From NCBI GenBank assembly GCA_043798555.1, contig JAZDOO010000224.1, positions 1 to 44,031 on the forward strand: a stretch of 44,031 nt of DNA, given 5' to 3'. Origin of the DNA: Pseudomonadota bacterium (GTDB taxonomy: Bacteria > Desulfobacterota > WTBG01 > JAGOGO01). Position 1 is the first letter of the stretch; every line of letters begins with the position of its first letter. The notes below the pieces were generated by a model. It searched no databases. It saw nothing but the letters and a program-made list of their open reading frames with translations, and was not told the origin of the DNA. The translations under genes and the position numbers were made by a program. Positions 16,666 to 44,031 of the stretch are shown piece by piece.

Positions 16666-16947
16666 TTACCCCCCCACTGCGGGGGGCATAAAATAGACTA
16701 CGGTTCCGTCCTGTAGGGAAGTATTCATCCCTTCTAAGAAGCGGTGGTCTTTATTGCCTACAATAATCATAATCGGGAATTTAGCCGACTCTCTCGGCCG
16801 AAGTTCCATCTCTTTTTCTTTTCCATACATCTCACCGATCCTGGTAATCAAGTTATCAAGGGTGCTTTGATCGGGTAACTCCACCTCAAATTCTTTCTGA
16901 TTGAAAAGGTCTTGGAGGTGACCGTAAATCTTAACTTTTACTTTCAC
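16666..16947 (-). CDS. MoaD/ThiS-family ubiquitin-like sulfur-carrier protein
   Basis: 93 aa. MKVKVKIYG start (GTG). C-terminal ...PPAVGG di-glycine. Directly downstream of an AOR gene, as in the AOR-associated MoaD-like genes I recall from other operons. Confidence 0.7.
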   Translation of the reverse strand: MKVKVKIYGHLQDLFNQKEFEVELPDQSTLDNLITRIGEMYGKEKEMELRPRESAKFPIMIIVGNKDHRFLEGMNTSLQDGTVVYFMPPAVGG

Positions 16948-16995
16948 TGTTTTGAATATGGATTACCCATCAAGTGCGGAATGACATTAAACATT

Positions 16996-18855
16996 TTACC
17001 CCTTCATGATGTTTTCAATATCTCTGGCAGCTGATTCCAGGCCTAATTTTCGCAGTTTTTCCGGTGAAGGGATACCTTCTGCATTCCATTCTCGGGCTTG
17101 ATAATATTCTTGTATCATATCCTGTAGTTTTGAGACCGTCTGTCCTGTGGCGGCTTCGGCTTCAAGGAGAGGTTCCTTTTGTATCCGTTCCGGAAGGGTA
17201 TCGTCTTTGCTTCCGAAGCCTTCCCGAATGTCAAAAGCCCGTTCCAGGTTGTATACTCGGTCAGCAGCATTGAAAAGATACTCCGGATTACCAAATTCTT
17301 TCATGCCTGTAGCTGAGGCTAATAATTTACCCAAAATGTCGGGAGTAATCATCCCCATACCTCCCGGAAACGTACAGACGATGCCAAACTCGCAAACGGT
17401 AACCAAATCTTGGTTCCATCTACAAACATCACCTTTTCCCTCCTCAGAAAAACGTTCCACCGGCCTGGGGAAAGGACTGTTGAAAATCTCCTGGGAAGAA
17501 TAGCCAATGTTATGGTTTGCCCCCACCACCGAGGTGGCATAGTTAAGCCCCTGGTTCTTGGCCGCCCGGGGATCATAGGCCGGCATTTCCAGCCCTTTCA
17601 CTTCCATGGCATATTTATAAGCCTCCCCTCCGATCCTTTCTGCCATTTTTCGGGTTCCCTCAGCCAACAGATCACCAAACCCTTCCCGCCGGGCAATCTT
17701 ATTAATCAGTTTCATCATGGCTTCGTGGTTCCCGTAGGTGAGTTCCAGTCCGTCAGTATCATTGGCAGTGATGATTCCCTTTTCGAATAACTCAAAAGCA
17801 AAACCGATCGTACTGCCAGTACTGATGGTGTCAAGACCGAGGTCATCGCAAAGGGCATCAGCAGCAATAATGGCACCGATTTCGTTATTTTCCACGGGTC
17901 CGCTAAAAGCCCAGATGCTCTCATAATCAGGTCCACCTTCCGCTCCCGCATAGGGTCCTTCGGTAACTTTGAAAACATTCCCGCAGTGTATTAAACAACC
18001 ATAACACGCTTCATTACTGACTTTAAGCTTTTTGAAAGCTTCAGCATTAAACTTTTCAAATCCTTTTATAGTCCCCTTGCGAAAGTTTCGGACGGGGAAT
18101 ATTCCCAGCCCCACCATGTGGTCAACCATACCCGGCGTTCCGGCTTCAGAAAAAAACTCAAATATTTCTCCGGCCTTGATCCCTTCGATCTCCTCCCGGA
18201 TAAGTTTTTTAAACTCCTCCGGATCGGGAATATCTAACGGGCCGATAGCATTCACCGCCACCGCTTTTAAGTTTTTTGACCCCATGACCGTCCCTACCCC
18301 ACCCCGGGCACAAATACGTCTCCCATTTACCACGCCGGAGTAAAGCACACCGTGTTCCGCTGCCGGACCTATACAAGCAGTTCGAGTCTTTTTCCCATGG
18401 AGGGTTTCCAATTTTTCCTGAGTCTTCAGGGTATCTAACCCCCAGAGGTCCTTCGCATCTCTCAGGTCCCCTTTTCCTTTCTCAACATAAAGATATACCG
18501 ACTTTTCTGCCTTGCCCTCACACAAGATAAAATCATACCCGGCAAAGTTAAGCGCTGCCCCGAAATTGGCTCCTCCTACGGAACGGATATAAGCCCCGGT
18601 AAGCGGGCTTTTGGTGATGACCATCCAGCGGGAGCAGGACTGGGCTCCGCTTCCGGCCAGAGGACCGGTGAGAAGGATTAGTTTGTTCTCTGGACCCAAA
18701 GGATCTGCTTTGGGAGCTATTTCATCATAAAGGTACTTAATTCCGAGACCCCGGCCACCAATAAAATTCATAACCACTTCCGAAGGAATCTTTTCCTCTT
18801 TGACACTACCCGAGGTAAGGTTTACTCGTAAGTATTTTCTTATTTTGGGTATCAC
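16996..18855 (-). CDS. aor: Tungsten-type aldehyde:ferredoxin oxidoreductase (AOR family)
   Basis: 619 aa. GTG start with AAGGAG RBS. N-terminal LRVNLTSG...GGRGLG. Pterin and 4Fe-4S region with C-x2-C-x3-C (CYGCLIHCG). Length and layout typical of the AOR family. Confidence 0.9.
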   Translation of the reverse strand: MIPKIRKYLRVNLTSGSVKEEKIPSEVVMNFIGGRGLGIKYLYDEIAPKADPLGPENKLILLTGPLAGSGAQSCSRWMVITKSPLTGAYIRSVGGANFGAALNFAGYDFILCEGKAEKSVYLYVEKGKGDLRDAKDLWGLDTLKTQEKLETLHGKKTRTACIGPAAEHGVLYSGVVNGRRICARGGVGTVMGSKNLKAVAVNAIGPLDIPDPEEFKKLIREEIEGIKAGEIFEFFSEAGTPGMVDHMVGLGIFPVRNFRKGTIKGFEKFNAEAFKKLKVSNEACYGCLIHCGNVFKVTEGPYAGAEGGPDYESIWAFSGPVENNEIGAIIAADALCDDLGLDTISTGSTIGFAFELFEKGIITANDTDGLELTYGNHEAMMKLINKIARREGFGDLLAEGTRKMAERIGGEAYKYAMEVKGLEMPAYDPRAAKNQGLNYATSVVGANHNIGYSSQEIFNSPFPRPVERFSEEGKGDVCRWNQDLVTVCEFGIVCTFPGGMGMITPDILGKLLASATGMKEFGNPEYLFNAADRVYNLERAFDIREGFGSKDDTLPERIQKEPLLEAEAATGQTVSKLQDMIQEYYQAREWNAEGIPSPEKLRKLGLESAARDIENIMKG

Positions 18856-19021
18856 TTTCCGTCACTCCTTTATATCAAAATCCCCTCTCACTCCCCTTTA
18901 CAAAAGGGGAGAACCAATAAATCCCCCTTTTTATGAAGAGGGGGTTTTAATGCTTTCTTGTGACTTTATCAGTTATGGAGGTTAGTAAAAAGGACCTGTT
19001 AGCAACTCCCTCGGGATAGTT

Positions 19022-20644
19022 TTAAAAGGGAGGAATTCCTTTCTCTCGAGCCTTTTTTATCATTTCTGGTTCCGGCCACCACTTCGTTATCCCCAGATCC
19101 TCGCAAATGGCATCCGCGGCCAGATACCCATTGGCCATTAATATCGTTCCACCGGGGTAGGTACAAGCTCCTCCCAAATAGAGACCCTTAATGGGTGAAC
19201 GGTGATTTGAACACTCTTCATTTGGTCTGATATAGCCCATCTGGAAGGGATGGTATGCTCCTTGTTTATAAGAACCTTTCACCATGTCTTTGAATTTGTT
19301 AGCATAACCAATGGGAGTGGAAACGTAAACACTTCTGATAGCATCCTCAGTCATATTGGGAGCATACGACCGCAAAAGTTCAATCAGCTTTTCCGCTTCT
19401 TTGGTATAAAAAGCATAGTTCCACCATTTCTCCGCTCCACCATCAGCCAAATCATAAGGCACATGGGTCTGAAGAATTCCCGTATGTTTTCCGGGATGCC
19501 GGCACTGGGTGGGATCATGGATGGTAGGAATGGTACAGTGAGCAATAGGTTTATCAGGAATCCTCTTCTCTTCTATGGCTTTATAGTGCTCCAGATAATC
19601 ATCTATGGTTTCACATCCTAAGATGGTAATCAGGGCTTGATTTAGTTCGGAATCTTTATATTGAGGCGCCTCTTCCAAAGCCAGGTGCACCCCAAAAAAG
19701 GCCCAGTGCTCCCACATCCACAGCTTGATTCCTTCAACAAACTCTGAAGGCAAATGGTCTTCTCCTACTAAATTCAGGAAGGTTTGATGGAGGTCAATAG
19801 TACTTAATACTGCCTGAGATTCATAAGTTGTCCCGTCCTCCATTTCTACCCCTCTGGCCTCACCATTTATCACCATGATCCGTTTAACATCCTGAGAAGT
19901 AAGCACTACTCCCTTATTTTCCAAAATATTTTTGATAAGCGACTGAGTGAGGGCATGGGAACCAGTCTTACAAATCCGGTAACTACTGGTACGGTTAAAG
20001 TAAAGAGGAATAAGGTACCCTAACCCTGACTGTTCAGGCTCCAATCCCCAAAAACAAATGGCATTGATCATTAAGCCCCGGATATATGGGTCAGAAAACC
20101 ACTCTTCCACCAGATCCCGGGGGGTCTTTTCGGTCAATTCAAACATTTCCTGACCCATTTCAAGGGCCTCCATCTGGGCAGCAATCTCTAAGGTGCCTCG
20201 GGGCTGGACATAGGTGTAAGGTGCTAAGAAATCATCCGTCCACACTTTAAACTTAGCATAAAGGTTTCGATAGGCATCAGCATCCTTCTGGGAAAACTTT
20301 GCAAACGATTGGCAGGTTTTTTCTACGTCATTATAAATACCTACCCATTTTCCATTCTTTAAGGGCATTGCAATCTGGAGCGAAGGGAAAATATGGTGCA
20401 ATGAATACTTTTTCTCTAATTCCAGATCAGTATAGGCCGGTGCGTAATCTACCATCATCATATAAATAGCGTGGGTATTATGGTAATATCCGGCAGTGGT
20501 AACTTCTTCGGTAGCGAGTCCTCCACCCATCTCATATCGTTTTTCTAAGACCAGCACTTTCTGTCCGGCGCGGGCCAGGTAAGCGCCTGCCAACAACCCA
20601 TTGGGACCACCTCCGAGGATGATGGTGTCAAACTTTTTTTCCAT
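19022..20644 (-). CDS. CrtI/phytoene-desaturase-family FAD-dependent oxidoreductase (canonical FAD motifs)
   Basis: Start refined to the ATG at 20644 (GGAGGA RBS). DTIILGGGPNGLLAGAYLARAGQKVLVLEKRYEMGGG gives GxGxxG plus E-x5-GG. Paralogous to the upstream gene (shared FAKFSQKDADAY). Confidence 0.8.
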   Translation of the reverse strand: MEKKFDTIILGGGPNGLLAGAYLARAGQKVLVLEKRYEMGGGLATEEVTTAGYYHNTHAIYMMMVDYAPAYTDLELEKKYSLHHIFPSLQIAMPLKNGKWVGIYNDVEKTCQSFAKFSQKDADAYRNLYAKFKVWTDDFLAPYTYVQPRGTLEIAAQMEALEMGQEMFELTEKTPRDLVEEWFSDPYIRGLMINAICFWGLEPEQSGLGYLIPLYFNRTSSYRICKTGSHALTQSLIKNILENKGVVLTSQDVKRIMVINGEARGVEMEDGTTYESQAVLSTIDLHQTFLNLVGEDHLPSEFVEGIKLWMWEHWAFFGVHLALEEAPQYKDSELNQALITILGCETIDDYLEHYKAIEEKRIPDKPIAHCTIPTIHDPTQCRHPGKHTGILQTHVPYDLADGGAEKWWNYAFYTKEAEKLIELLRSYAPNMTEDAIRSVYVSTPIGYANKFKDMVKGSYKQGAYHPFQMGYIRPNEECSNHRSPIKGLYLGGACTYPGGTILMANGYLAADAICEDLGITKWWPEPEMIKKAREKGIPPF

Positions 20645-20728
20645 TAGTATCCTCCTTTTTCTTAAACGTTCGGTCTCTCTACCTTTCTCAGTAAAAGGAA
20701 ACAAACGTTACCAAGACCTATAAACACC

Positions 20729-22369
20729 TTAATAAGCCCTTCCTTTCTCTTCCCAGGGCTTCCGGAGACCCAAGTCTTCGGCCATTACTTTATAGGCACA
20801 ATATCCCTGCATGGAATTAGCCCCCCCAAAGGGGTGCCAGCCAGCTCCGGTGGCGTAAAGACCCTTGACTGGCGTCCGACCCGAGGCTAGGTTGGGTGTG
20901 GGCCGATTCCTGCCGATCTGGGATAAACAGCCGTCAATAACCACTATGTTACCGGCTTTTCCCCAATTGCGAGCGTGCTTCGAGCTATAATGAGGCGTGA
21001 TGGGTAAGTACCCGATTACGTTATCCCAGGTCATGTTCGGAGCATACTTCTGCCAGTACTTCAGAATCTCGTCTGCATGGCGTTTCTCGTACTCTTTCCA
21101 CTCCTTCTCGGAAAGACACCAAGCTGGTTGCAGATAGGTCTCAGTGAGGACTACATGTTTTCCTGCTGGGGCATATTGAGGGTCAATAATGCAGTGGTCG
21201 CTCACCACCATCCCCAGATGGTCGGGATCTGGAAATAATCCCATTCTTCTTCTCGCATTCTCCTTTATTACTTCGTTAATATCTTTACTTCCCAGGACGC
21301 CCCAACCCATGTACTTGCAGTCCGGATCGAAGACTTCTGCCTTGTATTTAGGGCGTTCGTGTAGTGCCCAGGTGTACCACCCGATAGTTACAAAATCCAT
21401 TTCCAGATTTTTTACCCTCTTTACATCTATCGGGTCAAAATATTCTGGCCCCACCAGTTCAAAGACAAACTGGTAAGGGTCAACCCCAATGAGCACCGCA
21501 TATTTTGCTTCGATTTCAGTGCCGTCTTCCAGACGGATACCCTTTGCTCGTCCATTTTCGATGAGTACTTTTTTTACTGGTTTGCGGGTAAATACCTTAC
21601 CGCCGTACTGGAGAATCACCCTCTGCATGGCGTGGGCAAGTTGATGGTTTCCGCCTTTAACCACCCCAAAATCAATCGAGTAAGGTAACCAGACCGCAGT
21701 ACACAGGAGGCCCTGAGCCCAGCCATCCGGCACAACGCCTTGGGACTGAATTGGCCTCAAAAAGGAGGCTTGTATTTCCGGGCTTTCAAACACATCCCGA
21801 TAAAACTGGATGGGAGACATAGAAAGCCACAGCGGATCAATCCCGGCGTCGGGATTTCGTATCAATCGATCAAAAGCGTCTTCCTTACCGTAGGGAACTG
21901 CAGGATTAAAACACCATTCTAACAGGGCCGGTTCCCAGTACTTTTGAATCTTATCGTACATCCATAACCAGGTGTCAGCATCCTTTTGGCTGAAGCGGGC
22001 AAATAGTTTTGCAGTCTTTTCCTGGTTCGGATCAGTTGTCCTGGAATAGGTGCCAACCCATGTATCATCTTCTAAGATCACTACTGCGGTGTTCACTTTG
22101 TGATCCTGGTAGATAGCTCCATATTCCTTCCATTCCGGAATGTCTTCCCAGAGGGGGCGGTGATAATTTAGCCAGCTATTATGGGCATGCGAACACTGGT
22201 GGGCGACAAATCCGGGCGCAGCCGCTTCCTCCTGGCAAAAGCCCGAAAAAAGCTCATGGCGCTCTTCAAAAAGCCCTACACTCATCCCCCCATATTTGGT
22301 GAGGTACATTGCTGTCACTCCTGCCTTTTGTCCCCCCACAATTACCACATCAAAACTCATGTCAGCCAT
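20729..22369 (-). CDS. CrtI-family paralog with degenerate dinucleotide-binding motifs
   Basis: 546 aa with AAGGAGGG RBS. The N-terminus reads VVIVGGQKAGV...LFEERHELFSGF where GxGxxG and GG are expected. Shares FARFSQKDADTW and overall length with 19022-20644. Confidence 0.75.
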   Translation of the reverse strand: MADMSFDVVIVGGQKAGVTAMYLTKYGGMSVGLFEERHELFSGFCQEEAAAPGFVAHQCSHAHNSWLNYHRPLWEDIPEWKEYGAIYQDHKVNTAVVILEDDTWVGTYSRTTDPNQEKTAKLFARFSQKDADTWLWMYDKIQKYWEPALLEWCFNPAVPYGKEDAFDRLIRNPDAGIDPLWLSMSPIQFYRDVFESPEIQASFLRPIQSQGVVPDGWAQGLLCTAVWLPYSIDFGVVKGGNHQLAHAMQRVILQYGGKVFTRKPVKKVLIENGRAKGIRLEDGTEIEAKYAVLIGVDPYQFVFELVGPEYFDPIDVKRVKNLEMDFVTIGWYTWALHERPKYKAEVFDPDCKYMGWGVLGSKDINEVIKENARRRMGLFPDPDHLGMVVSDHCIIDPQYAPAGKHVVLTETYLQPAWCLSEKEWKEYEKRHADEILKYWQKYAPNMTWDNVIGYLPITPHYSSKHARNWGKAGNIVVIDGCLSQIGRNRPTPNLASGRTPVKGLYATGAGWHPFGGANSMQGYCAYKVMAEDLGLRKPWEEKGRAY

Positions 22370-22444
22370 GATAACATCCCTCCTTTAACTCCAGGGTTCA
22401 GAAGCGTAATCGTTTTTTACACAAGACGGTAAAACTCTGTTCAA

Positions 22445-23206
22445 TTACCAGCAAACTTGGCCACCGTCACACTCCAAGGTCTGGCCAGTGACAAAATCTG
22501 AATCATCCGAAGCCAAAAAAACAAAGGTTCCCATCAGATCATCCGTTTCACAACTCCTCTTAAAGCACTGTAACTGGGCACATCCTTCTTTCATTCCCGG
22601 GTTTTCACCCGCCATGCGAAGGCCAGCTTCACTCATGGTAAATGCCGGAGACACAGCGTTCACATTAATCCCGAATTCTCCCAGTTCATTCGCTAAAACC
22701 CGGGCGATTCCTATCACCGCTCCCTTTGAAGCCGTGTAATGACAGAGCAGTGTAAACCCAGCAAGGAAGGTGCCCGAAGAGAGATTGATTATTTTGCCCT
22801 TTCTCTGAGCCTTCATTTGTGAAACTACCGCTTTCGAGCAGAGCCACACCCCTTTCACGTTCACTGCCATCACCCGGTCCCATTCCTCTACGGTTATTTC
22901 CTCAAAAAGCTTGAGCGGAAGTCCGTAAAAAATAGCAGCATTATTAACCAAAACATCAATTCTACCAAAATGGTCAACTGTCTTTCTGGCCATCTCTACG
23001 GTATCTTTTTCCGAAGACACATCAGTTCTTAAGGCTAAGGCTTCTCCCCCCGCGTCTTTTATTTCCCGGGCTACCTTTTCCGCATTTTCTTTTACAATTT
23101 CTGCAATGACTACCTTTGCCCCTTCCTTAGCATAACGAAGGGCAATGGCCCTGCCAATGCCTCTTCCCCCACCAGTGATAATGGCTACCTTATCTTTTAA
23201 GAGCAT
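22445..23206 (-). CDS. Short-chain dehydrogenase/reductase (classical SDR)
   Basis: Start at the ATG at 23206 (AAGGAGGAAGG RBS). TGGGRGIGRAIA, NNAAI and YTASKGAV (Y-x3-K) all present. Confidence 0.9.
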   Translation of the reverse strand: MLLKDKVAIITGGGRGIGRAIALRYAKEGAKVVIAEIVKENAEKVAREIKDAGGEALALRTDVSSEKDTVEMARKTVDHFGRIDVLVNNAAIFYGLPLKLFEEITVEEWDRVMAVNVKGVWLCSKAVVSQMKAQRKGKIINLSSGTFLAGFTLLCHYTASKGAVIGIARVLANELGEFGINVNAVSPAFTMSEAGLRMAGENPGMKEGCAQLQCFKRSCETDDLMGTFVFLASDDSDFVTGQTLECDGGQVCW

Positions 23207-23267
23207 TACCTTCCTCCTTATCACCTGAAAAACAAATTTATTAATTATTTGTTACAAAAACTCACCA

Positions 23268-24026
23268 TTAATGCACTACCAAAGCACCATCACAGGCGAT
23301 TAATTGGCCAGTAAAGAAGTCTGAATCATCAGAAGCGAGGAAGACCACGGTCCCAGCCACATCCTCTGGCTTCTCATTCCGTTTGATAGCCTGTTGGCTG
23401 ATAATAGACTCTCCAAAGTCAGGGGGGAGATTCTTTATAGACATTCCTTCCACTTCGGGGATATAGCTGACGCTCACCGTATTCACGCAGATGTTCCAAT
23501 CCCCTAATTCTCTTGCCAAACTTCGAGTCATAAGGTACATCGCTCCCCGGGAGGTGACATAGGGCAGGAGAAAGGGTTGGCCCGAAAAAATCTTACTGGT
23601 GGTAAAGTTAATGATCTTGCCTTTTTTTTGACTTTTCATCTGACCCACAACTGCCTTTACACAAAGAAAACTTCCTTTAATATTGAAAGCCATTATTCTA
23701 TCCCATTCTTCTGATCCCCATTTTTCAATGGGCTGAAAAGCTTCCGGAAGCATCACTGCACTGTTAACCAAAATATCAATGCTCCCGTATTTTTCTATAA
23801 CCTTTTTCACCATAGCCTGAGTGCTTTCCTCATTGGTGATGTCAACCTCCAAAGCCATGGCTTCCCCATTACCTCTACTAATAGACTCCTTAACGGTTTC
23901 TGCTCTGGCTCTATTTTGATCAGTGACAACCACTTTTGCACCCTCAGAAGCTATCCGTAAGGCCACTGCCTCTGCTAATTTATTTCCCACTCCAGTAACC
24001 ACTGCCACTTTATCTTTTAATCTCAT
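23268..24026 (-). CDS. SDR-family paralog with non-canonical cofactor and catalytic motifs
   Basis: TGVGNKLAEAVA in place of TGxxxGIG, NSAVM in place of NNAG, YVTSRGAM (Y-x3-R in place of Y-x3-K). AGGAGGGG RBS. Confidence 0.8.
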   Translation of the reverse strand: MRLKDKVAVVTGVGNKLAEAVALRIASEGAKVVVTDQNRARAETVKESISRGNGEAMALEVDITNEESTQAMVKKVIEKYGSIDILVNSAVMLPEAFQPIEKWGSEEWDRIMAFNIKGSFLCVKAVVGQMKSQKKGKIINFTTSKIFSGQPFLLPYVTSRGAMYLMTRSLARELGDWNICVNTVSVSYIPEVEGMSIKNLPPDFGESIISQQAIKRNEKPEDVAGTVVFLASDDSDFFTGQLIACDGALVVH

Positions 24027-24114
24027 TTATTCCCCTCCTGAAAGTTGTTTCGGACAAAAGCGAATAAAAAAGATATACGCCTTTGTCCGAAACCCTTAAC
24101 GAACGACAATAAGG

Positions 24115-24423: not shown

Positions 24424-24627
24424 TTTAACCTCCTCCACTTTTCTTTCAATGGGCGTAGACATTGAAGTCCCTTTCTATTCCTTATTTATTCCTTGAGAAT
24501 ATGCTGCAATAGTGACCAATCATTGCTTCAATTGATTCAACTGAAAGTCAGCTTTGTTCGGATAATACGGATTCAAAAAGAGGAATTGATTATCTTTCCC
24601 AAAAACAGGGTTTATTATGAGAGATGA

Positions 24628-24876
24628 TCAAATTTGAGTATAAAAAACAGTAGTGCATTTCGGGCATTTTATTCGCCAGCCTATAAACAGAATTTCTTCG
24701 GTGGTTTTTAGCACGCTGTATTCCAGATCATCTTTATTACCACACTTAGGGCAGTTTATATTTTCGATTTTGACATCCACGGGCGTGCCCTTCTTTTCCA
24801 ATCGTTTCTCAGATTCTTTATGCCCAGTGTCTCTTGACGTGTCCCATTTCTTGACTATTTCGTCCCAATCCGCCAA
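24628..24876 (-). CDS. Small zinc-ribbon protein, possible UbiD-partner (BsdD/VdcD-like) subunit
   Basis: 82 aa. TTG start with GAGGTGA RBS. CPKC-x25-CPKC zinc ribbon. Sits 108 nt downstream of the UbiD gene. Confidence 0.5.
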   Translation of the reverse strand: MADWDEIVKKWDTSRDTGHKESEKRLEKKGTPVDVKIENINCPKCGNKDDLEYSVLKTTEEILFIGWRIKCPKCTTVFYTQI

Positions 24877-26571: not shown

Positions 26572-26888
26572 AGGTATAACCTCCTTTATTTCCACTTGAA
26601 CTATTATTATAAACTACTGGAATATTTTCATCGCTTATTCACCCTCGATCCTTTTTCTCACCTCCTTTTTTACTCTTTAGAATACTCATTCTTATTAGAG
26701 ACTAAACTCTATGCATCCCCCCTTTCTTGCATAGACGCATGTTTAAGACCACTACGAAGCTAAAACTGGTGCTCTTTTTTTGGTGAGTGATTATTGTTAC
26801 TATCAATCAATGATCATGGAGTTTGAGAGGGGGAAAACTCCCCCTCTTCTCTCGATATGTGATGAAGTAATAGCCTCCCCTACGCTTA

Positions 26889-29853: not shown

Positions 29854-29981
29854 AGCACTCCTCCTTCTGGCAAGTACCTTCATTAATAATGAAAAACTAT
29901 CCTTTTCTTTTTCGTTATCCCCTCCTTTCATCCGGTAATGGTAAATAAATTTCACTCTGAAACCACCTTATTCTTCCTTCC

Positions 29982-30737: not shown

Positions 30738-30753
30738 ATTAACGTTCGCTAAA
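30738..30753. promoter_or_regulatory. Dyad-symmetric 16-mer (candidate TetR operator, tetR-proximal copy)
   Basis: ATTAACGTTCGCTAAA. Bases 30739-30753 are the exact reverse complement of 30979-30993. Internal symmetry TTTAnCGnnCGnTAAA. Confidence 0.55.
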
Positions 30754-30978: not shown

Positions 30979-30994
30979 TTTAGCGAACGTTAAA
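30979..30994. promoter_or_regulatory. Dyad-symmetric 16-mer (candidate TetR operator, operon-proximal copy)
   Basis: TTTAGCGAACGTTAAA, 58 nt upstream of the ATG at 31052. Inverted copy of 30738-30753. Confidence 0.55.
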
Positions 30995-34514: not shown

Positions 34515-34600
34515 TCCCTGCTAACCGGTTCGATAGGGCGTTTTTAGTAATTGGTAATACCTGAGTGTATCCAAGATCATATGAAAGGAGAGGACTGATT

Positions 34601-36042: not shown

Positions 36043-38340
36043 ATGGCCGAATATGCAATCATAGGCAAATCAGTGCCCAAGGTAGATGCAGTTCCAAAAG
36101 TCACTGGTGCTGCCAGATATGCCGGAGACATATTTTTACCCAGAATGCTGTGCGGGAAAATTCTAAGAAGCCCGCATCCCCATGCTCGAATCCTTAACAT
36201 CAATACCAGCAAGGCAGAAAGGTTGTTGGGGGTAAAAGCGGTTATCACCGGTAAACGCGATACCGCGGAGGTAAGATACGGGTTATTTCCCGGCACAAGG
36301 GATGAGTACGCCCTGGCTACTGATAAGGTCCGCTATGTCGGAGACGAAGTAGCCGCAGTAGCAGCTCTTGATGAAGATACGGCAGAAGAGGCTCTGGAGC
36401 TTATTGCAGTCGAGTACGAAGTGCTTCCTGCGGTCTATGATCCCATCGAGGCCATGAAAGAAGGTGCTCCACAACTTCATGATTTTAAGCCCCGAAACAA
36501 AAGTATCGTCGTTGACATAGAGCTTGGTGATGTGGAAAAAGCTTTTAAGGAATCAAATTATATCCGTGAAGATCACTTCGATACCGTAGCATTGACGCAC
36601 TGCATTCCGGAACTCTACGGAGCTATTGCCACGTGTGATCCCTCAGGCTACATTGATGTATGGGTCAATAATCAAGCCCCATTTATCAAACAAAAGGCCC
36701 TCTCCACCACCATGAGGATACCGGAACAGAAGATCAGACTGCACCGGCCTTATCTTGGTGGCGCCTTTGGGAGTCAATCCGAGATGCTGAAGGCAGAGTT
36801 TGTTGCCGCGATGCTTGCTCGCAAAACAAGGAGACCGGTGAGAGTATTTCTCACCCGGGAGGAAACAAATTCAGGGAGTGCCCGGCAGAAGCATCCTTAT
36901 CATATGGACATTAAGACCGGTGTTAAGAAGGATGGAACCATAAAGGTAATCTCCATTAACAGTATCAATGACGGCGGGGCTTACATCAGTATTGGAGCGA
37001 TCACCAATGTCTGTGGAACAATTTGTACCTTAGGTATGTATCCCAGGATAGAGGCCTATAAATACCATTGCGACCGGGTCTGTACCAATAAACCCCCGAA
37101 AGGTGCCATGCGCGGCAACGGAGGGCAGCAGATCCAGTTTGCAGTGGAAAGCCAGGTTGATTTAATCGCCCGGGATCTGGGAATTGATCCGATAGAAATG
37201 AGAGCAAAAAATGCAGCTCGTACCGGAGACGTAAATCCCCATAAGGGTGTGATAAATAGCAGTGCCTTTCCTGATACCATCAGAGAAGCCGCAAAGGCAG
37301 CAGGGTGGAAACAAAAAGTTGGGAAACTCCCGCCTTATAAGGGTATCGGAGTGGGATGTGCCACTTATTTTCATTCCTTTGATTATGGATACCGTACTGC
37401 GTCGGCTGCCTTTATTAAGTTTAATGAGGAAGGAGAGATCACCATATTCAGTGGCAACGTGGATAATGGGATGGGGAATGAGACCATGCTTTGTGCGATT
37501 GCTGCCGAAGAACTCGGGGCCCGTTTAGAAAACATACGGTTAGTGAATGGCGATACCTTACTTACCCCCAACGACCCTGGAACTCATACGATGTCTGCGA
37601 CTACCACCAGCGGAATGGCGATGAAGGTAGCGGCTACGGATGCTAAACGTCAGCTTTTTGAGGTTGCCGCTGAGGTATTAAAAGCTGATCCGGAACGTCT
37701 GGAATCGAAAGAGGGAAAAATTTTTATCAAGGGACGCCCGGATAAAACAATTTCTTTCCGTGATGCCATCAGGGCTGGCCTTTTAAAAGGACAGGTGGTT
37801 TTGGGAAAAGGTCATTTTCAACCTCACCTCGATCCTCTTGATTGGTACGGCGGTGGGATTATGGGTCAGATGGTGGGCGGCTATAGCTATGCAACGACTA
37901 TCGCTGAAGTTGAAATTGATAGAGACACAGGGCAGATAAAGGTGCCTAAGCTTACCGTGGCTTATGATTGTGGTAAGCCTCTTAACCCGCAGATTGTCCA
38001 TGGACTGATTCACGGATCAACAATGTTCTGTTTAGGACAGGCAATGTACGAAGAAATCTATTTAGACAAAGGGCAGGTAATGAACCCTACTTATTTAGAT
38101 TATACCCTTCCTACTTCATTACAGATGCCGGTGATCGAATCAATTATTGTGAAGTCCGAGCATCCTGATGGTCCTTTTGGCGCAAAAGGGCTCGATGCTT
38201 CGGTCCACTCCGTGAACGCTGCTATTGCTAATGCGGTCCACGATGCTATCGGGGTGAGGATTAAAGAGGTTCCCATAACGGCAGAAAAAGTTCTCAAGGC
38301 ATTAGAAGAAAAAGAGAAAAAAGGCGCTCATCGAAAGTGA
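36043..38340 (+). CDS. Xanthine-oxidase-family molybdopterin subunit (4-hydroxybenzoyl-CoA reductase alpha-like)
   Basis: 765 aa. N-terminal a/b-hammerhead signature GKSVPKVDAVPKVTGAARYAGD. Followed by the FAD and 2Fe-2S subunits. Confidence 0.9.
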   Translation: MAEYAIIGKSVPKVDAVPKVTGAARYAGDIFLPRMLCGKILRSPHPHARILNINTSKAERLLGVKAVITGKRDTAEVRYGLFPGTRDEYALATDKVRYVGDEVAAVAALDEDTAEEALELIAVEYEVLPAVYDPIEAMKEGAPQLHDFKPRNKSIVVDIELGDVEKAFKESNYIREDHFDTVALTHCIPELYGAIATCDPSGYIDVWVNNQAPFIKQKALSTTMRIPEQKIRLHRPYLGGAFGSQSEMLKAEFVAAMLARKTRRPVRVFLTREETNSGSARQKHPYHMDIKTGVKKDGTIKVISINSINDGGAYISIGAITNVCGTICTLGMYPRIEAYKYHCDRVCTNKPPKGAMRGNGGQQIQFAVESQVDLIARDLGIDPIEMRAKNAARTGDVNPHKGVINSSAFPDTIREAAKAAGWKQKVGKLPPYKGIGVGCATYFHSFDYGYRTASAAFIKFNEEGEITIFSGNVDNGMGNETMLCAIAAEELGARLENIRLVNGDTLLTPNDPGTHTMSATTTSGMAMKVAATDAKRQLFEVAAEVLKADPERLESKEGKIFIKGRPDKTISFRDAIRAGLLKGQVVLGKGHFQPHLDPLDWYGGGIMGQMVGGYSYATTIAEVEIDRDTGQIKVPKLTVAYDCGKPLNPQIVHGLIHGSTMFCLGQAMYEEIYLDKGQVMNPTYLDYTLPTSLQMPVIESIIVKSEHPDGPFGAKGLDASVHSVNAAIANAVHDAIGVRIKEVPITAEKVLKALEEKEKKGAHRK

Positions 38341-38361
38341 AATGTTTAAAAGGAGAGGACA

Positions 38362-40767
38362 ATGCGTTTACCAAAGTTTGACTATTTAGCCCCAAAGACC
38401 AGAGAGGAGTTATCGTCTTTGCTCTTGAAATACAAGGATGGGGCCAAGATTTTGGGAGGAGGAACAGAACTGCTCGTTTCCATGAAACAGAACATACTCA
38501 CTCCCCGGTACGTGATAAACCTTAAAACCGTTTCCGGGTTAGACTACATAACAAGTAACCATGAGGGAGGAATGAGCATCGGGGCCTTAACTACCCTCAA
38601 CAGGATTGAAGAGTCGCCGGAAGTAAAGAGCACTTTCCCGGTTTTAGCTCAGGCTGCTGGCAGTGTCGCCTCTCCTCATATCCGGCAGATGGCAACCATC
38701 GGAGGTAATATATGTTTAGATGCACGTTGTGGGTATTACAATCAGTCCAAGGAATGGAGAAAGGTACGGGAGACCTGTCTCAAGCAGGGAGGTACTGTTT
38801 GCCATGCAGTTAATAGTCTCTGTGAAAGTGCATGTCCAATCCATATGGATGTTTCCGGATATATAGCCCTCATTGCCGAAGGTCGTATTGAAGAGGCCCT
38901 GGAGATCATCAGGGATACTAATCCGTTGGCCGGAATTTGTGGCCGGGTCTGTCATCATCCCTGTGAAACTGTTTGCCGACGGGGAGAGCTGGATGCACCA
39001 ATAGCTATTGCTGCCCTGAAAAGATTTGCTGTGGACTATGGAGCAAAAAAAGGAATACAAACCCCCATTCGTAAAGCAACGCCAAAAGGAATTAAGGTAG
39101 CCATTGTGGGGTCTGGTCCTGGTGGGTTAACCGCCGCTTATCATCTTGCTCGATGGGGTTATGAGGTCACCGTGTTTGAAGCACTCCCCGTTGCTGGGGG
39201 AGCAATCGCCTGGGGAATTCCAGAGTACCGTCTCCCTCGAGAAATATTACAGGCAGATATTCAGTTTATCACTGATCTTGGAGTAGAAATCAAAACCAAC
39301 AGCCCCGTGGGGAAAGATGGAATTTCCTTCAAGAGCCTGACCAGGCAAGGTTATAAAGCACTCTTTCTCGACACCGGTGCCGGGGAAGGCTATGAGCTTC
39401 CCATCCAAGGCACCACCTTAAAAAATGTCTTAAAAGGGGTTGAGTTTCTTAAGAGATTAAATTTTAAGGAAAAAATAACGGTTGGCAAAATGACTGTCGT
39501 TATTGGGGGAGGCAATGTGGCCATTGATGTGGCCAAGTGTGCCTTACGGCTCGGAGCAAAAGAAGTTCAGCTTGCCTGCCTTGAATCTCGAGATGAAATG
39601 CCTGCCATCCCGGAAGAAATAGAAGAGGCTGAGGTTTTAGGGGTAAAGCTCCATTGCGGCTGGGGCCCGATAAGGATTATAGAAGGAAACGGTGCCGCCC
39701 GAGGGGTTGAGTTACAAAAGTGTATCTCGGTATTTGATCGCGACTGGAAGTTTAATCCTGCGTATGATGAGAACGTGAGAATGATCTTAGATGCGGATAC
39801 GGTCATTATTGCCGTTGGCCAGGTCCCTGATCTTTCCTTTTTGGAAGGATCCGGGGTGAAGATCAGTGGGAACAAAATTCCGGTAGATTCCGTTACCTTG
39901 GCTACCAATAAGCCAGGAATATTTGCCGGCGGGGATGTGGTTACCGGACCTGGAAAAATAGTCGGAGCCATGAGCGCGGGTTTGAATGCTGCTATATCCA
40001 TAGATAACTACCTTCAAGGAAAAGAGCTTTATCAGGACAGAACGCTTCCATCATTTAAAAAAACGCTCATATGCCGTTCCAGTGAAGAAAAAGGGTTTTC
40101 GCGGCAAGAGATGCCTTCCCTCCCATTGGCAGAAAGGCTAAAGGGGTTTAAAGAGGTTAATTTGGGATTCACTTCGGAGATGGCCCAAAAAGAAGCCTCC
40201 CGATGCTTGAACTGTGGGGCGGATGAGTGTGCTGCCATATTTTCAGCAGATACAGTTCCCGCTCTCATCGCCTTGGGCGCTAATGTAAAAATAGTAAAAG
40301 CCGGCGACGAGAACATTATTCCTCTGGAGGCATTTTACACCGGGGAAGGGAAGAAGGTTAATATTCTTACCTCAGATGAATTTATCACTGAAATTCAAAT
40401 CCCTGCACTTCCACCGCATAGTGGAGGAGTATACTTAAAACATTCGGTAAGAAATGTAATTGATTTTCCTCTTCTGGGAGTTGCAACCGTCATCACCCTA
40501 AGTAATAAGAGTGTCTGTAAAGAACTAAAGATAGTGGTCTGCGGAGCCAGTTCTGCACCGTTTAGGGCAACAGAAGCAGAAAACCTCCTTAAAGGGAAAA
40601 AAGCGAATGAAAAGATTATTCAGGAAGCTGCTCAGGAAGCTGCTGCCAAGGCGAGGATCATATCTACCGGAGGAAGGGCAGTAAGCCTGAATTACCGAAA
40701 AAAAATAATCATGGGATTGGTAAATAAATCAATACATCAAGCCTGGAAACAGGCCCTATCGAATTAA
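38362..40767 (+). CDS. Chimeric FAD subunit: CoxM/HcrB-like FAD-binding subunit with a GltD/NfnB-like NAD(P)H:flavin FeS module nested in its [4Fe-4S] loop
   Basis: aa 1-150 are CoxM-type (ILGGGTELL...ATIGGNICLDARCGYYNQSKEWRKVRETCLKQGGTVCHAV). aa ~151-622 are GltD-like (CESACP..., GICGRVCHHPCETVC, VAIVGSGPGGLTAAYHL, VVIGGGNVAIDVA, IFAGGDVV, ...RCLNCGADE). aa 623-801 resume CoxM-type sequence (CAAIFSADTVPALIALGA...VIDFPLLGVA...) and the C-terminal domain. Confidence 0.85.
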   Translation: MRLPKFDYLAPKTREELSSLLLKYKDGAKILGGGTELLVSMKQNILTPRYVINLKTVSGLDYITSNHEGGMSIGALTTLNRIEESPEVKSTFPVLAQAAGSVASPHIRQMATIGGNICLDARCGYYNQSKEWRKVRETCLKQGGTVCHAVNSLCESACPIHMDVSGYIALIAEGRIEEALEIIRDTNPLAGICGRVCHHPCETVCRRGELDAPIAIAALKRFAVDYGAKKGIQTPIRKATPKGIKVAIVGSGPGGLTAAYHLARWGYEVTVFEALPVAGGAIAWGIPEYRLPREILQADIQFITDLGVEIKTNSPVGKDGISFKSLTRQGYKALFLDTGAGEGYELPIQGTTLKNVLKGVEFLKRLNFKEKITVGKMTVVIGGGNVAIDVAKCALRLGAKEVQLACLESRDEMPAIPEEIEEAEVLGVKLHCGWGPIRIIEGNGAARGVELQKCISVFDRDWKFNPAYDENVRMILDADTVIIAVGQVPDLSFLEGSGVKISGNKIPVDSVTLATNKPGIFAGGDVVTGPGKIVGAMSAGLNAAISIDNYLQGKELYQDRTLPSFKKTLICRSSEEKGFSRQEMPSLPLAERLKGFKEVNLGFTSEMAQKEASRCLNCGADECAAIFSADTVPALIALGANVKIVKAGDENIIPLEAFYTGEGKKVNILTSDEFITEIQIPALPPHSGGVYLKHSVRNVIDFPLLGVATVITLSNKSVCKELKIVVCGASSAPFRATEAENLLKGKKANEKIIQEAAQEAAAKARIISTGGRAVSLNYRKKIIMGLVNKSIHQAWKQALSN

Positions 40768-40829
40768 CCACCGCTAAACAAAAACGCCAAAGTGATAGCT
40801 TGGATGTAAGCTCTTAGGGGGATTGTAAA

Positions 40830-41285
40830 ATGAAGCAGACGATGAATTTCAAAGTAAACGGAGAACACTATGAGTTGTTAGTAGATACCCGCAGCACCCT
40901 CCTGGAGGTTTTGAGGGAAGAAATTGGTCTCACCGGCACCAAGGAAGGTTGTAGTCTGGGGGCATGCGGGACCTGTACGGTCATATTAGATGGTAAGCCT
41001 GTACTTTCCTGTTTAGTTTTAGCTGTTGATGCCGAAGGCAAGGAAGTTCTCACGATCGAGGGACTCGCCCAGGGCGATACCCTCCACCCGATCCAAAAAG
41101 CTTTTGTTGAGCATGGAGCCATCCAGTGCGGATATTGCACTCCGGGGATGGTAATGTCCGCCAAGGCATTATTGGATCAAAACCCTAAGCCAGGCTATGA
41201 GGAAATTAAAAAAGCCATTTCAGGAAACATCTGCCGTTGCACTGGCTATACGAAAATTATAGAAGCTATTCAGTCGGTAAAATAA
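40830..41285 (+). CDS. Xanthine-oxidase-family [2Fe-2S] small subunit
   Basis: 151 aa. GCSLGACGTCTV (plant-type cluster) plus QCGYCTPG...CRCTGY (second cluster). Confidence 0.92.
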   Translation: MKQTMNFKVNGEHYELLVDTRSTLLEVLREEIGLTGTKEGCSLGACGTCTVILDGKPVLSCLVLAVDAEGKEVLTIEGLAQGDTLHPIQKAFVEHGAIQCGYCTPGMVMSAKALLDQNPKPGYEEIKKAISGNICRCTGYTKIIEAIQSVK

Positions 41286-41339
41286 CAATAGTAAACCATT
41301 ACTAACTAAAAGTCCTTATTCCCAAAAAGGAGGTTTAAA

Positions 41340-42482: not shown

Positions 42483-42491
42483 GAGAACGTC

Positions 42492-43655
42492 ATGAACTTT
42501 GATCTCACTGAAGAACAGCTAATGATGCGACAATTAGCCCGGGATTTTGCTCTGAAAGAAATTAAACCCGTAGTGGATAAGGATGAAGCCAGCCACCGCT
42601 TTCAGAGCGAATTGGTTAAAAAAATGGGAGAGCTGGGATTTTTCGGGTGTATCATTCCTGAAGAGTATGGAGGGTCAAACACTGGATTTGTTACCCATGC
42701 TCTCATTACCGAAGAAATTGCCCGGGTAAGCGGTTCTCTTCGGGCACCATTTAATGCGCAGGCAATGGGCACTGCTCGGGAAATTTTTCAATACGGGAAC
42801 GAGGAGCAGAGAAAAAAGTATATCCCCAGGTTGGTGAGTGCGGAATGGCTGGGGTGTATCTGTATCACTGAGCCGAATGCTGGTTCCGATGTAGCCTCAA
42901 TGCGAACCAAAGCCGTAAGGCATGGAGATCACTATCTCATAAACGGCTCGAAGAACTGGATCACTTATGGAGAGGTAGCGGACATAGGAATTGTTTATGC
43001 CTATACCGACCAGGAGAAAAAACACAACGGTATTTCCGCCTTCATTGTTGATATGCATTCCGCCGGCATCTCTACTGCGTCAATGGGAGAAAAAATGGGC
43101 TGGAATGCCTGTCCCACCAGCGAAGTTTTTTTCGAAGAAGTAAAGGTTCCCGGGGAGAATTTAATGGGTAACGCAGGAGAAGGCTTTAAATATTGCATGG
43201 GGGGATTGGATAATACCAGATTATCAGCCGCGGCTGGTGCCGTGGGGGTTGCACAGGGACTGCTGGACGAAAGCATCAGGTACGCCACCGAACGGGAACA
43301 ATTTGGTAAACCCATTGCTCAATTCCAGATGGTTCAGGAGGTGATTGCCCGGATGGCAACCGATATTGATGCTGCCCGGCTTCTCACCTATCGTTGTGCA
43401 TACTTAAAAGACAAAGGAGTACCTTCTACGGTGGAGACCTCCATGGCAAAACTATTTTCTTGCGAGGTAGCATCCAGGGTGAGTGATTTAGCCCTCCAAG
43501 TTTTGGGCGCCTACGGATATTCACGGGAATATCCGGTAGAACGTTACCTGCGGGATGCAAAACTGTATCAGTTGTTAGAAGGTTCAGTCAACATCCAGAA
43601 AGTAATCATTGCCGGAGATGTCCTTGGAATCCGCCCAACGAAAAAGAAAAACTAA
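42492..43655 (+). CDS. Acyl-CoA dehydrogenase
   Basis: 387 aa. N-terminal MNFDLTEEQLMMRQLARDFA. TEPNAGSD. C-terminal YQLLEGSVNIQ (catalytic Glu region). Confidence 0.92.
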   Translation: MNFDLTEEQLMMRQLARDFALKEIKPVVDKDEASHRFQSELVKKMGELGFFGCIIPEEYGGSNTGFVTHALITEEIARVSGSLRAPFNAQAMGTAREIFQYGNEEQRKKYIPRLVSAEWLGCICITEPNAGSDVASMRTKAVRHGDHYLINGSKNWITYGEVADIGIVYAYTDQEKKHNGISAFIVDMHSAGISTASMGEKMGWNACPTSEVFFEEVKVPGENLMGNAGEGFKYCMGGLDNTRLSAAAGAVGVAQGLLDESIRYATEREQFGKPIAQFQMVQEVIARMATDIDAARLLTYRCAYLKDKGVPSTVETSMAKLFSCEVASRVSDLALQVLGAYGYSREYPVERYLRDAKLYQLLEGSVNIQKVIIAGDVLGIRPTKKKN

Positions 43656-43867
43656 ACAACCCTCGTCTGCAAGACGAGGGGTTCTAAGGCGGGTTGATTA
43701 AAATCAACTGTTTTTGTCATGCCGGACTCGATCCGGCATCCAGAAGTCCCAAGCATCGTATTCCCTGGATTCCGGCTCTATGGCCGGAATGACAAGTCGC
43801 TCGGCGACAACGTAAAACTTGCTTCGCCTGAAGGCGAGGGGTTTCAACCATCCCCGAAAGGGACACT
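43653..43867 (-). mobile_element. Transposase-less miniature derivative (MITE/PATE-like) of the IS200/IS605 element at 16125-16665
   Basis: Shares TAAACAACC plus two hairpins (43660-43680, 43693-43708) and the 45-nt CTTCGCCTGAAGGCGAGGGGTTTCAACCATCCCCGAAAGGGACA end (43822-43865) with the full element. Its interior has extra hairpins (ATGCCGGA/TCCGGCAT, TTCCGGC/GCCGGAA) and no ORF. Confidence 0.72.
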
Positions 43868-43883
43868 AAAGTGGAGGTCTTCA

Positions 43884-44031
43884 ATGGCTGGCCATAAAGA
43901 ACTTTACGATGATTATAAAATCCGGTGTGAGAAAATAAAACAAATGGGGGGAGCCAAGGCTGTGGAAACCCAGCACCAGCGGGGAAAGTGGACCGCCCGG
44001 GAAAGAGTCGAATACTTTTTTGATCCTGGTA
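43884..44031 (+). CDS. Acyl-CoA carboxyltransferase / decarboxylase alpha-type subunit (glutaconyl- or methylmalonyl-CoA decarboxylase/carboxylase family), 5' partial
   Basis: GGAGG RBS 6 nt upstream of the ATG. MAGHKELYDDYKIRCEKIKQMGGAKAVETQHQRGKWTARERVEYFFDPG matches the K-x-TARER-x-x-x-x-x-DPGS N-terminal signature of carboxyltransferases. Runs off the window. Confidence 0.75.
   Translation, partial: MAGHKELYDDYKIRCEKIKQMGGAKAVETQHQRGKWTARERVEYFFDPG

Follow-up and report, generated by a model that had tools for sequence, protein, structure and literature searches.

The limonene/Ame island of Castellaniella defragrans combines the flavoprotein pair CtmA/CtmB, whose subunits are 27% identical to each other (PMC4109377), with the GeoA, GeoB and GeoC enzymes and with AmeABCD, a four-part system that is encoded inside the monoterpene island and induced on monoterpenes (PMC6394551; PMC4109377). 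The sterol delta-24 desaturase of Sterolibacterium denitrificans has subunits that are 26% identical, and the covalent-flavin motif of this enzyme family, G-F-L/R-X-N/S-T/L-H-A, lies near the N-terminus of both subunits (PMC11061730). In the p-cresol/phenol/4-hydroxybenzoate funnel of Geobacter metallireducens and Thauera aromatica, p-cresol methylhydroxylase (PCMH) and phenylphosphate carboxylase feed a 4-hydroxy acid to 4-hydroxybenzoate-CoA ligase and 4-hydroxybenzoyl-CoA reductase (HBCR). PCMH is a VAO-type flavocytochrome, and the [4Fe-4S] cluster of HBCR serves reverse electron flow. Here we analyse a 44,031-nucleotide stretch of DNA from a bacterium of the Desulfobacterota (contig JAZDOO010000224.1; hereafter the window), in which a gene island at 16666-44031 resembles both the limonene island and the phenolic funnel. 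We tentatively read it, at somewhat below even probability, as one TetR-controlled island for a hydrophobic, toxic, methyl-bearing ring compound, forming a convergent funnel onto an aromatic acid of the 4-hydroxybenzoate type.

A preliminary description of this DNA, made from the sequence, had stated that the gene combination matches no described cluster. This is not supported, as the minus-strand arm of the island together with its CoA ligase mirrors the upper limonene pathway and the AmeABCD island of C. defragrans. Both loci have a flavoprotein pair of ~27% mutual identity with a flavin motif, alcohol, aldehyde and CoA-ligase steps nearby, and a set of DUF1302, DUF1329, Ycf48-like and HAE3-type resistance-nodulation-division (RND) proteins. 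They differ in that the medium-chain dehydrogenase/reductase GeoA gives way to short-chain dehydrogenases/reductases (SDRs), the NAD-dependent GeoB to a tungsten aldehyde:ferredoxin oxidoreductase (AOR), and GeoC to a PaaK-like ligase. The window also lacks a CtmEF ferredoxin or reductase and the mrc ring-cleavage genes, has Cys in place of the flavinylation His in one flavoprotein subunit, splits its transporter over divergent arms, and comes from a host that is apparently a strict anaerobe. The S. denitrificans desaturase shares the flavoenzyme family and the heterodimer architecture with the window pair and the covalent-flavin His motif with its subunit 1, but it desaturates steroid side chains instead of hydroxylating, and both its subunits have the His (PMC11061730). 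In common with the Geobacter/Thauera funnel, methyl oxidation and carboxylation would meet in a 4-hydroxy acid, which would then be ligated to CoA and dehydroxylated by a three-subunit, molybdenum (Mo)-dependent enzyme with HBCR-specific [4Fe-4S] cysteines. In the window, however, the methyl hydroxylase would be CtmAB-like, there is no phenylphosphate synthase, the UbiD protein is of a single-subunit Zn-ribbon type, and the Mo enzyme has an alpha subunit 38% identical to HcrA and a beta subunit with a 470-residue NfnB-like insert.

In the favoured reading, the AmeABCD-like four-part RND system would handle the hydrophobic compound at the envelope. The CtmAB-family flavoenzyme, with a small conserved partner protein, would carry out water-dependent hydroxylation of an allylic or benzylic methyl group, the SDRs would oxidise the resulting alcohol, and the tungsten AOR would convert the aldehyde to the acid. 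Alongside this branch, a UbiD/Zn-ribbon enzyme of VdcCD-like type would interconvert that acid and its non-carboxylated congener. The PaaK-like ligase would then form the CoA thioester, and the HBCR-like Mo enzyme would reductively remove the para substituent, with electrons probably entering through the NfnB-like NAD(P)H module and the HBCR [4Fe-4S] cluster, possibly by bifurcation and in this direction. The product would join the benzoyl-CoA route, for which a BamA-type hydrolase, a glutaryl-CoA dehydrogenase and the start of a glutaconyl-CoA decarboxylase are predicted in the window. Three proteins of that route, a dearomatising reductase, Dch and Had, are absent from the window and must be encoded elsewhere. 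The substrate is most likely an alkylphenol or a phenolic or aromatic terpenoid; sequence alone cannot name the compound. This order of steps, from methyl oxidation to acid, CoA thioester, dehydroxylation and the benzoyl-CoA route, is close to that of the preliminary description, which is partly supported: the enzyme families fit it, but the steps of dearomatising reductase, Dch and Had have no gene in the window. Every gene product listed in that description is present, as judged from the open reading frame (ORF) listing and from Pfam and NCBIfam scans; the list omitted a conserved 115-aa gene and the NfnB-like insert.

The unity of the island is seen in its transporter, its regulator and its layout.

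26889..28124, minus strand: DUF1329/LolA-like periplasmic protein (AmeB-like), 411 aa; from Pfam and the AmeABCD comparison
28231..29955, minus strand: DUF1302 outer-membrane protein (AmeA-like), 574 aa; from Pfam and the AmeABCD comparison
29982..30632, minus strand: TetR regulator with a TetR_C_24 domain; its best NCBIfam match, sub-threshold, is of the acyl-CoA-sensing FadR type
30739..30752, plus strand: candidate operator, 14-mer TTAACGTTCGCTAA, copy 1, in the divergent TetR/BNR spacer
30980..30993, minus strand: candidate operator, 14-mer TTAACGTTCGCTAA, copy 2, inverted, in the same spacer, 241 bp from copy 1
31052..32122, plus strand: Ycf48/BNR-repeat periplasmic protein (AmeC-like), 356 aa; from Pfam/NCBIfam and the AmeABCD comparison
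32172..34514, plus strand: HAE3-family RND inner-membrane transporter (AmeD-like), 780 aa; TIGR00921, MMPL

The 22 genes form two divergent same-strand arrays flanking the TetR gene (29982-30632), with a GC content of ~0.45-0.48 across both arms and short intergenic gaps throughout. All four AmeABCD families are present, in sizes (574/411/356/780 aa) close to those of AmeA-D (605/451/316/787 aa). Instead of a single co-linear ameABCD cassette we see the A/B-like genes on the minus arm and the C/D-like genes on the plus arm, with TetR between them, and this split of one transporter set ties the two arms to one function. The island is not a chance juxtaposition, since its gene order is kept in related contigs, namely three metagenome contigs (L005, L006 and L086). 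L005 has the order DUF1302-TetR//BNR-RND-ligase-Mo alpha/beta/gamma, with the same split of the transporter genes and with identities to the window of 66% (DUF1302), 70% (TetR), 68% (BNR), 73% (RND), 90% (ligase) and 95/86/87% (Mo alpha/beta/gamma). L006 carries the same plus-arm genes, 54-84% identical to those of the window. On the other arm, L086 has the order DUF1329-UbiD-Zn ribbon-115-aa ORF-SDR, at 81%, 93%, 76%, 93% and, for SDR 2, 78% identity. A genome-collection scan with the DUF1329 protein found no near relative of the window lineage among GTDB species representatives.

The TetR/BNR spacer is AT-rich and 419 bp long. Its two copies of TTAACGTTCGCTAA are the sole matches in the window when up to two mismatches are allowed; 0.35 matches per window are expected by chance, and two or more were found in 5 of 100 shuffles. 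The equivalent spacer of L005 has two related 14-mer sites, 240 bp apart. The preliminary description had made its reading hinge on joint control of the two arms, and such co-regulation is plausible, because the transporter is split over both arms, the spacer holds two candidate operator sites, and their spacing is kept in L005. A promoter and terminator scan gave the same counts as shuffled controls, so no operon boundaries are drawn from it, and an Rfam scan of the window gave tRNAs only, with no Moco or other riboswitch. The direction of transport is a separate matter. The proteins had been taken for an uptake system, but this role is unproven: AmeABCD of C. defragrans, the one studied homologue set, is an exporter giving tolerance, according to deletion and dye experiments (PMC6394551). 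In Pseudomonas the same four families co-fit on fatty esters, so that direction is not transferable from Castellaniella.

The predicted methyl-oxidising enzymes are encoded on the minus arm.

16666..16947, minus strand: MoaD/ThiS-like small protein; TIGR01687 49.5 bits, exactly at the cut-off, and Pfam ThiS
16996..18855, minus strand: tungsten-type AOR (AFOR_N, AFOR_C), predicted to convert aldehyde to acid
19022..20644, minus strand: CtmAB/delta-24-desaturase-family flavoprotein, His-type subunit 1, 540 aa; motif GYYHNTHA
20729..22369, minus strand: flavoprotein subunit 2, Cys-type, 546 aa; motif GFVAHQCS, with Cys in place of the flavinylation His
22445..23224, minus strand: SDR 1, predicted to convert alcohol to aldehyde; orthologues 48-60% identical in many CtmAB-like cassettes
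23268..24026, minus strand: SDR 2, from the family scan; 78% identical in L086
24115..24462, minus strand: unannotated 115-aa protein with a core of ~80 aa (RSTGLGKTEL...PVxW); recurrent third partner of CtmAB-like pairs

The two flavoproteins are adjacent paralogues, 27% identical to each other. By the motif of subunit 1, by this level of identity and by the paired loci, they are assigned to the CtmAB/sterol delta-24-desaturase family. The earlier label of a CrtI-family pair is correct at the superfamily level but not for CrtI proper, as the match to the CrtI structure 4DGK is marginal (35 bits). The motif His of subunit 1 is kept in 110 of 111 homologues. The Cys state of subunit 2 is common to 21 of 79 homologues, including most of its nearest relatives, and a further His stands two residues beyond the Cys position. 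A longer ORF for subunit 1 (560 aa, from a TTG start, to 20704) was rejected, having no exact record, and the homologues begin at the Met at 20644. The family gave 1,699 matches, in Chloroflexota/Dehalococcoidia, Desulfobacteraceae, Syntrophales, Binatia and Nitrospiria, frequently as multiple copies in one genome, and is thus large in uncultured anaerobes; CtmA/CtmB or desaturase subunits are not among the 120 matches listed. A tie between Cys-type subunit 2 and AOR or UbiD neighbours was considered and set aside, the counts being too small.

The AOR scores 421 bits to the Pyrococcus furiosus enzyme (1AOR) and 378 to that of Aromatoleum (8C0Z), against 301 for FOR and 210 for BamB. On these scores it falls in the AOR clade sensu stricto, nearer to characterised AORs than to FOR, WOR5 or BamB, and the adjoining MoaD/ThiS-like protein is probably a sulfur carrier for its pterin cofactor. 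With a CtmAB-family flavoenzyme, SDRs and a true AOR-clade enzyme side by side, the methyl-to-acid module proposed earlier is plausible. The 115-aa protein has no Pfam or NCBIfam match; its family comprises 73 cluster representatives. A single-sequence AlphaFold prediction (pLDDT 42) was set aside for an alignment-based AF2 model (pLDDT 86.6), which predicts four strands and two helices; the fold has no PDB counterpart, the best Foldseek hit having E 0.4.

To place these genes in context, the window proteins were compared with CtmAB-like loci (81 fetched, 75 after removal of duplicate contigs). In 51 of the 75 loci the subunit genes are immediate neighbours, and most other loci have them on the same strand, separated by a few kb. 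The 115-aa protein has a homologue encoded no more than 6 kb from the pair in 47 of 75 (for example L007, L012, L026, L039, L054, L066 and L071). With duplicates included, 20 of the 81 loci have an SDR orthologue (up to 60% identity), 12 have an AOR and 10 a UbiD. Cassettes in which AOR, pair and SDR occur together, accompanied by UbiD except in L023, are seen in Chloroflexota (L007/L083), Desulfobacteraceae UBA5623, a Desulfonema limicola metagenome-assembled genome (L046) and 'Desulfobacterium' TRIP AH-1. The L046 cassette also has UbiX, a lipocalin-like protein and an XDH-type Mo subunit; at 11651-13293 of that contig the cassette is followed by a PNPOx-like protein, the UbiX-type flavoprotein and the lipocalin-like protein, and the HcrA-like Mo subunit lies between the SDR and AOR genes, with no Fe-S or FAD subunit genes adjacent. 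In TRIP AH-1, two loci (L019 and L025, on scaffold LT984855.1) hold tandem sets of pair and UbiD, with DUF1302/DUF1329 genes, an AOR, a sigma-54 PAS regulator and an IS200-type transposase, in a large paralogue expansion; in the third (L023), a PaaK-like ligase and an HcrA-like Mo subunit adjoin the pair. Other CtmAB-like loci have hydantoinase/acetone-carboxylase-like genes, thiolase with DUF35, or B12-mutase genes, and these neighbours hint at branched, isoprenoid-type substrates. No description of a CtmAB and UbiD combination was found in the searchable literature.

The window's own UbiD gene lies beyond the 115-aa gene.

24628..24876, minus strand: Zn-ribbon protein with two CPKC knuckles, conserved partner of the window's UbiD subclade
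24985..26595, minus strand: UbiD-family prFMN (de)carboxylase, 536 aa, with a C-terminal extension; TIGR00148 317 bits against a cut-off of 245

Below threshold, the UbiD protein matches the VdcC model (305 bits; cut-off 650) and that of phenylphosphate carboxylase alpha (272 bits), and its closest structures are PDB 6H6X (227 bits) and VdcC of Sedimentibacter hydroxybenzoicus (ShVdcC, 7AE4, 223 bits). A metagenome scan centred on UbiD gave a subclade 44-55% identical to it. A Zn-ribbon homologue stands directly beside UbiD in 11 subclade loci and in the near relative L086, and this adjacency in 12 loci bears out the pairing put forward in the preliminary description. VdcD is a two-CXXC Zn ribbon and an essential activator of the 4-hydroxybenzoate/vanillate decarboxylase VdcC (PMC8379154). 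VdcCD and the window thus share a UbiD-family subunit beside a two-CXXC small protein. However, the window's Zn-ribbon ORF has no detectable similarity to VdcD and gave nothing beyond generic zinc-ribbon noise against Pfam, NCBIfam and PDB; the UbiD has a C-terminal extension and falls below the VdcC cut-off, and the island has no UbiX (VdcB). In L099 the neighbours of a subclade member are HpaB, a ligase, an aldehyde dehydrogenase and an HcrA-like fragment. Outside the window lineage, the closest UbiD (L087:9995-11763, 55% identity) has an overlapping Zn-ribbon ORF and is on an archaeal contig, surrounded by housekeeping genes (thermosome, tRNA-intron endonuclease, pyrBI and nrdD). The subclade is therefore not confined to catabolic islands; the idea of an archaeal-type UbiD was dropped, as this housekeeping context is uninformative on substrate.

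The Mo enzyme is encoded by three consecutive genes on the plus arm.

36043..38340, plus strand: Mo alpha, molybdopterin subunit of the HBCR-like enzyme; 493 bits to Thauera HcrA (1RM6_A)
38362..40767, plus strand: Mo beta, FAD subunit, 801 aa, with HBCR-type [4Fe-4S] loop cysteines and an NfnB-like insert
40830..41285, plus strand: Mo gamma, subunit with two [2Fe-2S] clusters (Fer2, Fer2_2)

Among solved structures, Mo alpha matches HcrA at 493 bits and the next best at 280. The [4Fe-4S] ligands of HcrB we take to be C122, C138, C146 and C155; residues C123, C139, C147 and C623 of Mo beta align with these four positions, and are kept in 70-71 of 74 fusion proteins. Mo beta aligns with HcrB on both sides of an insert of ~470 residues (approximately 150-620), located between the third and fourth ligands, and so the window has an 801-aa protein in place of an HcrB-like, ferredoxin-accepting beta subunit of ~324 aa. 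The insert is an NfnB-like module with two [4Fe-4S] clusters, FAD and an NAD(P)H site, in which seven Fe-S cysteines are conserved. It scores 266-345 bits to NfnB/NfnL/StnC-type bifurcating subunits, against 173 for GltD. Compared to the NfnAB/Stn-type bifurcating transhydrogenases, whose FAD/NAD(P)H fold it shares, the module is located inside the [4Fe-4S] loop of a xanthine-oxidase-family flavoprotein, rather than forming a separate enzyme, and has no NfnA partner. The same fusion architecture is common at up to 41% identity, in Dehalococcoidia, Anaerolineae, NaphS2 and others; no description of an HBCR with an Nfn/GltD fusion was found in the searchable literature. The enzyme had been called 4-hydroxybenzoyl-CoA-reductase-like, and this stands in that HcrA is its nearest solved relative and the [4Fe-4S] loop is kept; it is weakened by the modest identity to HcrA and by a family-model score below cut-off.

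The Mo genes are flanked by the ligase and by genes of the predicted lower pathway.

34565..35998, plus strand: PaaK-like acid-CoA ligase (AMP-binding_C_2); PaaK models 183-192 bits, far below their cut-offs, and PDB 4R1L 152 bits
41340..42482, plus strand: BamA/Oah-type 6-oxocyclohex-1-ene-1-carbonyl-CoA ring hydrolase, sister subclade; TIGR03200 408 bits
42492..43655, plus strand: non-decarboxylating glutaryl-CoA dehydrogenase (Desulfococcus Acd type); NF045552 486 bits against a cut-off of 470
43884..44031, plus strand: carboxyltransferase N-terminus (glutaconyl-/methylmalonyl-CoA decarboxylase alpha family); TIGR01117 E 1.4e-10 over 41 residues

The hydrolase falls short of the TIGR03200 cut-off (464), but its score for that model greatly exceeds the 96 bits that it reaches for BadI. 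It is 53-56% identical to proteins named Oah by NCBI annotation, and its relatives at 63-67% identity are encoded in SDR-Had-Oah-Dch clusters with glutaconyl-CoA decarboxylase genes. Its identification as BamA/Oah-like is thereby upheld. The gene previously noted as an acyl-CoA dehydrogenase passes the curated glutaryl-CoA dehydrogenase model; the carboxyltransferase is present, but as an N-terminal stub of 49 codons (43884-44030) cut by the contig end. Between these two genes is a 228-bp structured spacer (43656-43883), with a GC-rich hairpin right after the acd stop codon and, downstream of it, an inverted repeat TTGTCATGCCGG / CCGGAATGACAA at 43714 / 43784; the spacer is possibly a boundary of transcription, or else a small repeat element.

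The left end of the island lies close to a housekeeping region.

15988..16062, plus strand: tRNA-Val, left island boundary, immediately following tig-clpP-clpX-lon
16255..16599, minus strand: IS200/IS605 Y1 transposase (Pfam Y1_Tnp, E 4e-37), an edge marker with no pathway role

The order at this edge is lon, tRNA-Val, IS200 transposase, and the right end is the contig end, which falls inside the carboxyltransferase gene. Further left, positions 1-10250 (GC ~0.40) look like an integrated mobile element, unrelated to the island: this region has a tRNA-His/Arg/Lys cluster at 11-240 and tRNA-Leu at its end (10169-10250), two phage-type integrase genes (3044-3730 and 8676-9824), a PKD-domain protein and several ORFs with no family match. 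The host appears to be a strict anaerobe, to judge by its AOR, by its type of Acd/Gcd and by the taxa in which the homologues occur.

A hub like 4-hydroxybenzoate is favoured by the likeness of the UbiD to VdcCD, by the HBCR cluster that Mo beta retains and by the gene context of the BamA clade. Several points weigh against this funnel. The main mechanistic objection is that limonene dehydrogenase needs a high-potential acceptor, and it has been argued that the reaction is unworkable in sulfate-reducing or methanogenic cells (PMC12583861); no acceptor protein for the flavoenzyme is encoded in the window. CtmAB relatives also catalyse desaturation (PMC11061730), and subunit 2 is without the flavinylation His. 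Mo alpha reaches 692 bits for TIGR03194, whose cut-off is 994. Since it is 38% identical to HcrA, and since Mo subunits in the CtmAB cassettes of other lineages are equally distant from HcrA, the substrate of the Mo enzyme may not be a 4-hydroxyaryl-CoA; HBCR-like enzymes have also been proposed for 4-aminobenzoyl-CoA, with reductive deamination. In other phyla, the UbiD proteins encoded next to CtmAB pairs fall in a different subclade, 32-39% identical and with no Zn ribbon. Neither UbiX nor a dearomatising benzoyl-CoA reductase (BCR), Dch or Had is encoded in the window. In L005 the gene after Mo gamma (L005:13013-13429) starts like a flavoprotein of the Old Yellow Enzyme (OYE) or 2,4-dienoyl-CoA-reductase type, replacing the hydrolase, and the lower-pathway genes are therefore a variable appendage rather than a fixed part of the unit. 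Finally, all enzyme activities in the island are predictions from sequence.

A terpenoid substrate is kept alive by the CtmAB and AmeABCD components and by the isoprenoid-type neighbours seen elsewhere, and this leads to a different account, unlikely though far from negligible, in which the pathway is non-phenolic and of limonene or p-cymene type. The CtmAB-like enzyme, SDRs and AOR would produce an acid resembling perillate or cumate, which the ligase would esterify with CoA. The HBCR-like enzyme would then act as a water-dependent hydroxylase or dehydrogenase on an alicyclic enoyl- or dienoyl-CoA, like AtcABC on steroid ring A, passing electrons to NAD(P)+ via the NfnB-like module and making the oxo group for the Oah-type hydrolase; a substituted glutaryl-CoA would be handled by Acd and the carboxyltransferase. 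The monoterpene island of Castellaniella has CtmAB together with AmeABCD as its hallmark (PMC4109377; PMC6394551), and the perillyl-CoA route also runs via substituted pimeloyl- and glutaryl-CoA (PMC12583861). This account is also favoured by the lack of Dch, Had and a dearomatising reductase in the window, by the hydantoinase/acetone-carboxylase-like, thiolase-DUF35 and B12-mutase genes in other CtmAB-like loci, and by the XDH-type Mo subunits within the L046 and L023 cassettes. However, the beta subunit retains the [4Fe-4S] loop characteristic of HBCR, the hydrolase clade is found in canonical benzoyl-CoA clusters, the UbiD/Zn-ribbon pair resembles a phenolic-acid decarboxylase, and a plain hydratase and dehydrogenase would suffice for the job proposed for the Mo enzyme.

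It is improbable that the island instead consists of two adjacent but functionally independent modules: a mobile cassette for methyl oxidation and UbiD chemistry, directed at a different hydrophobic compound, and a unit that joins a 4-hydroxybenzoate-type ligase and reductase to the lower-pathway genes. Many lineages indeed carry the cassette but lack the plus-arm genes, the edge of the island is marked by an IS200 transposase and a tRNA gene, and the genes after the Mo enzyme are exchangeable, as in L005. Yet the AmeABCD-type transporter is split over both arms, operator-like sites face both, and intergenic gaps are short throughout; moreover, L086 joins DUF1329 to UbiD, Zn ribbon, the 115-aa gene and SDR, and L005 joins DUF1302 to TetR and the plus arm. 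We consider still less probable an oxidative removal of methyl branches, wherein the CtmAB-like enzyme, SDR and AOR would make a conjugated carboxyl group from an allylic methyl and UbiD would decarboxylate the resulting acrylic-type acid. The net result would be anaerobic demethylation, clearing a blocking substituent ahead of CoA-dependent degradation. UbiD genes of two subclades directly beside CtmAB-like pairs in several phyla, in tandem in TRIP AH-1, are consistent with this, as are the UbiX of L046 and the reversible decarboxylation of acrylic and aromatic acids by UbiD enzymes (PMC8379154). On the other side, the proposal is purely inferential, with no precedent found in the searchable literature, a ligase for the acid is available in the window, and the window UbiD is of the Zn-ribbon subclade, which is found in aromatic-acid contexts.

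Beyond the convergent funnel, the locus can be read jointly as two undescribed systems, a CtmAB-like cassette of strict anaerobes and a self-contained HBCR-type aryl-CoA reductase, although it is rather unlikely that this joint reading holds. The cassette would comprise a Cys-type subunit 2, the third protein of ~80 aa, SDR, tungsten AOR and prFMN-UbiD, and would be widespread. It would convert methyl groups of hydrocarbons to acids with neither oxygen nor fumarate addition, or excise methyl branches as CO2. In the reductase, the NfnB-like module in the [4Fe-4S] loop would bifurcate NADPH electrons to low potential, replacing ferredoxin. When strict anaerobes attack methyl groups without oxygen, the reaction is usually put down to fumarate addition. 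If the reading is true, a flavin-dependent methyl hydroxylase of the limonene dehydrogenase family wired to AOR and UbiD would be a second general route, in Desulfobacterota, Chloroflexota and Binatia, and the cassette would supply markers by which the turnover of terpenoids, alkylphenols or hydrocarbons could be traced in sediments and aquifers. The 115-aa protein brings a genomic context to a hitherto nameless family, and the HBCR-like enzyme with its NfnB-type module is a candidate answer to how reductive dehydroxylation may be powered in obligate anaerobes without a dedicated ferredoxin system.

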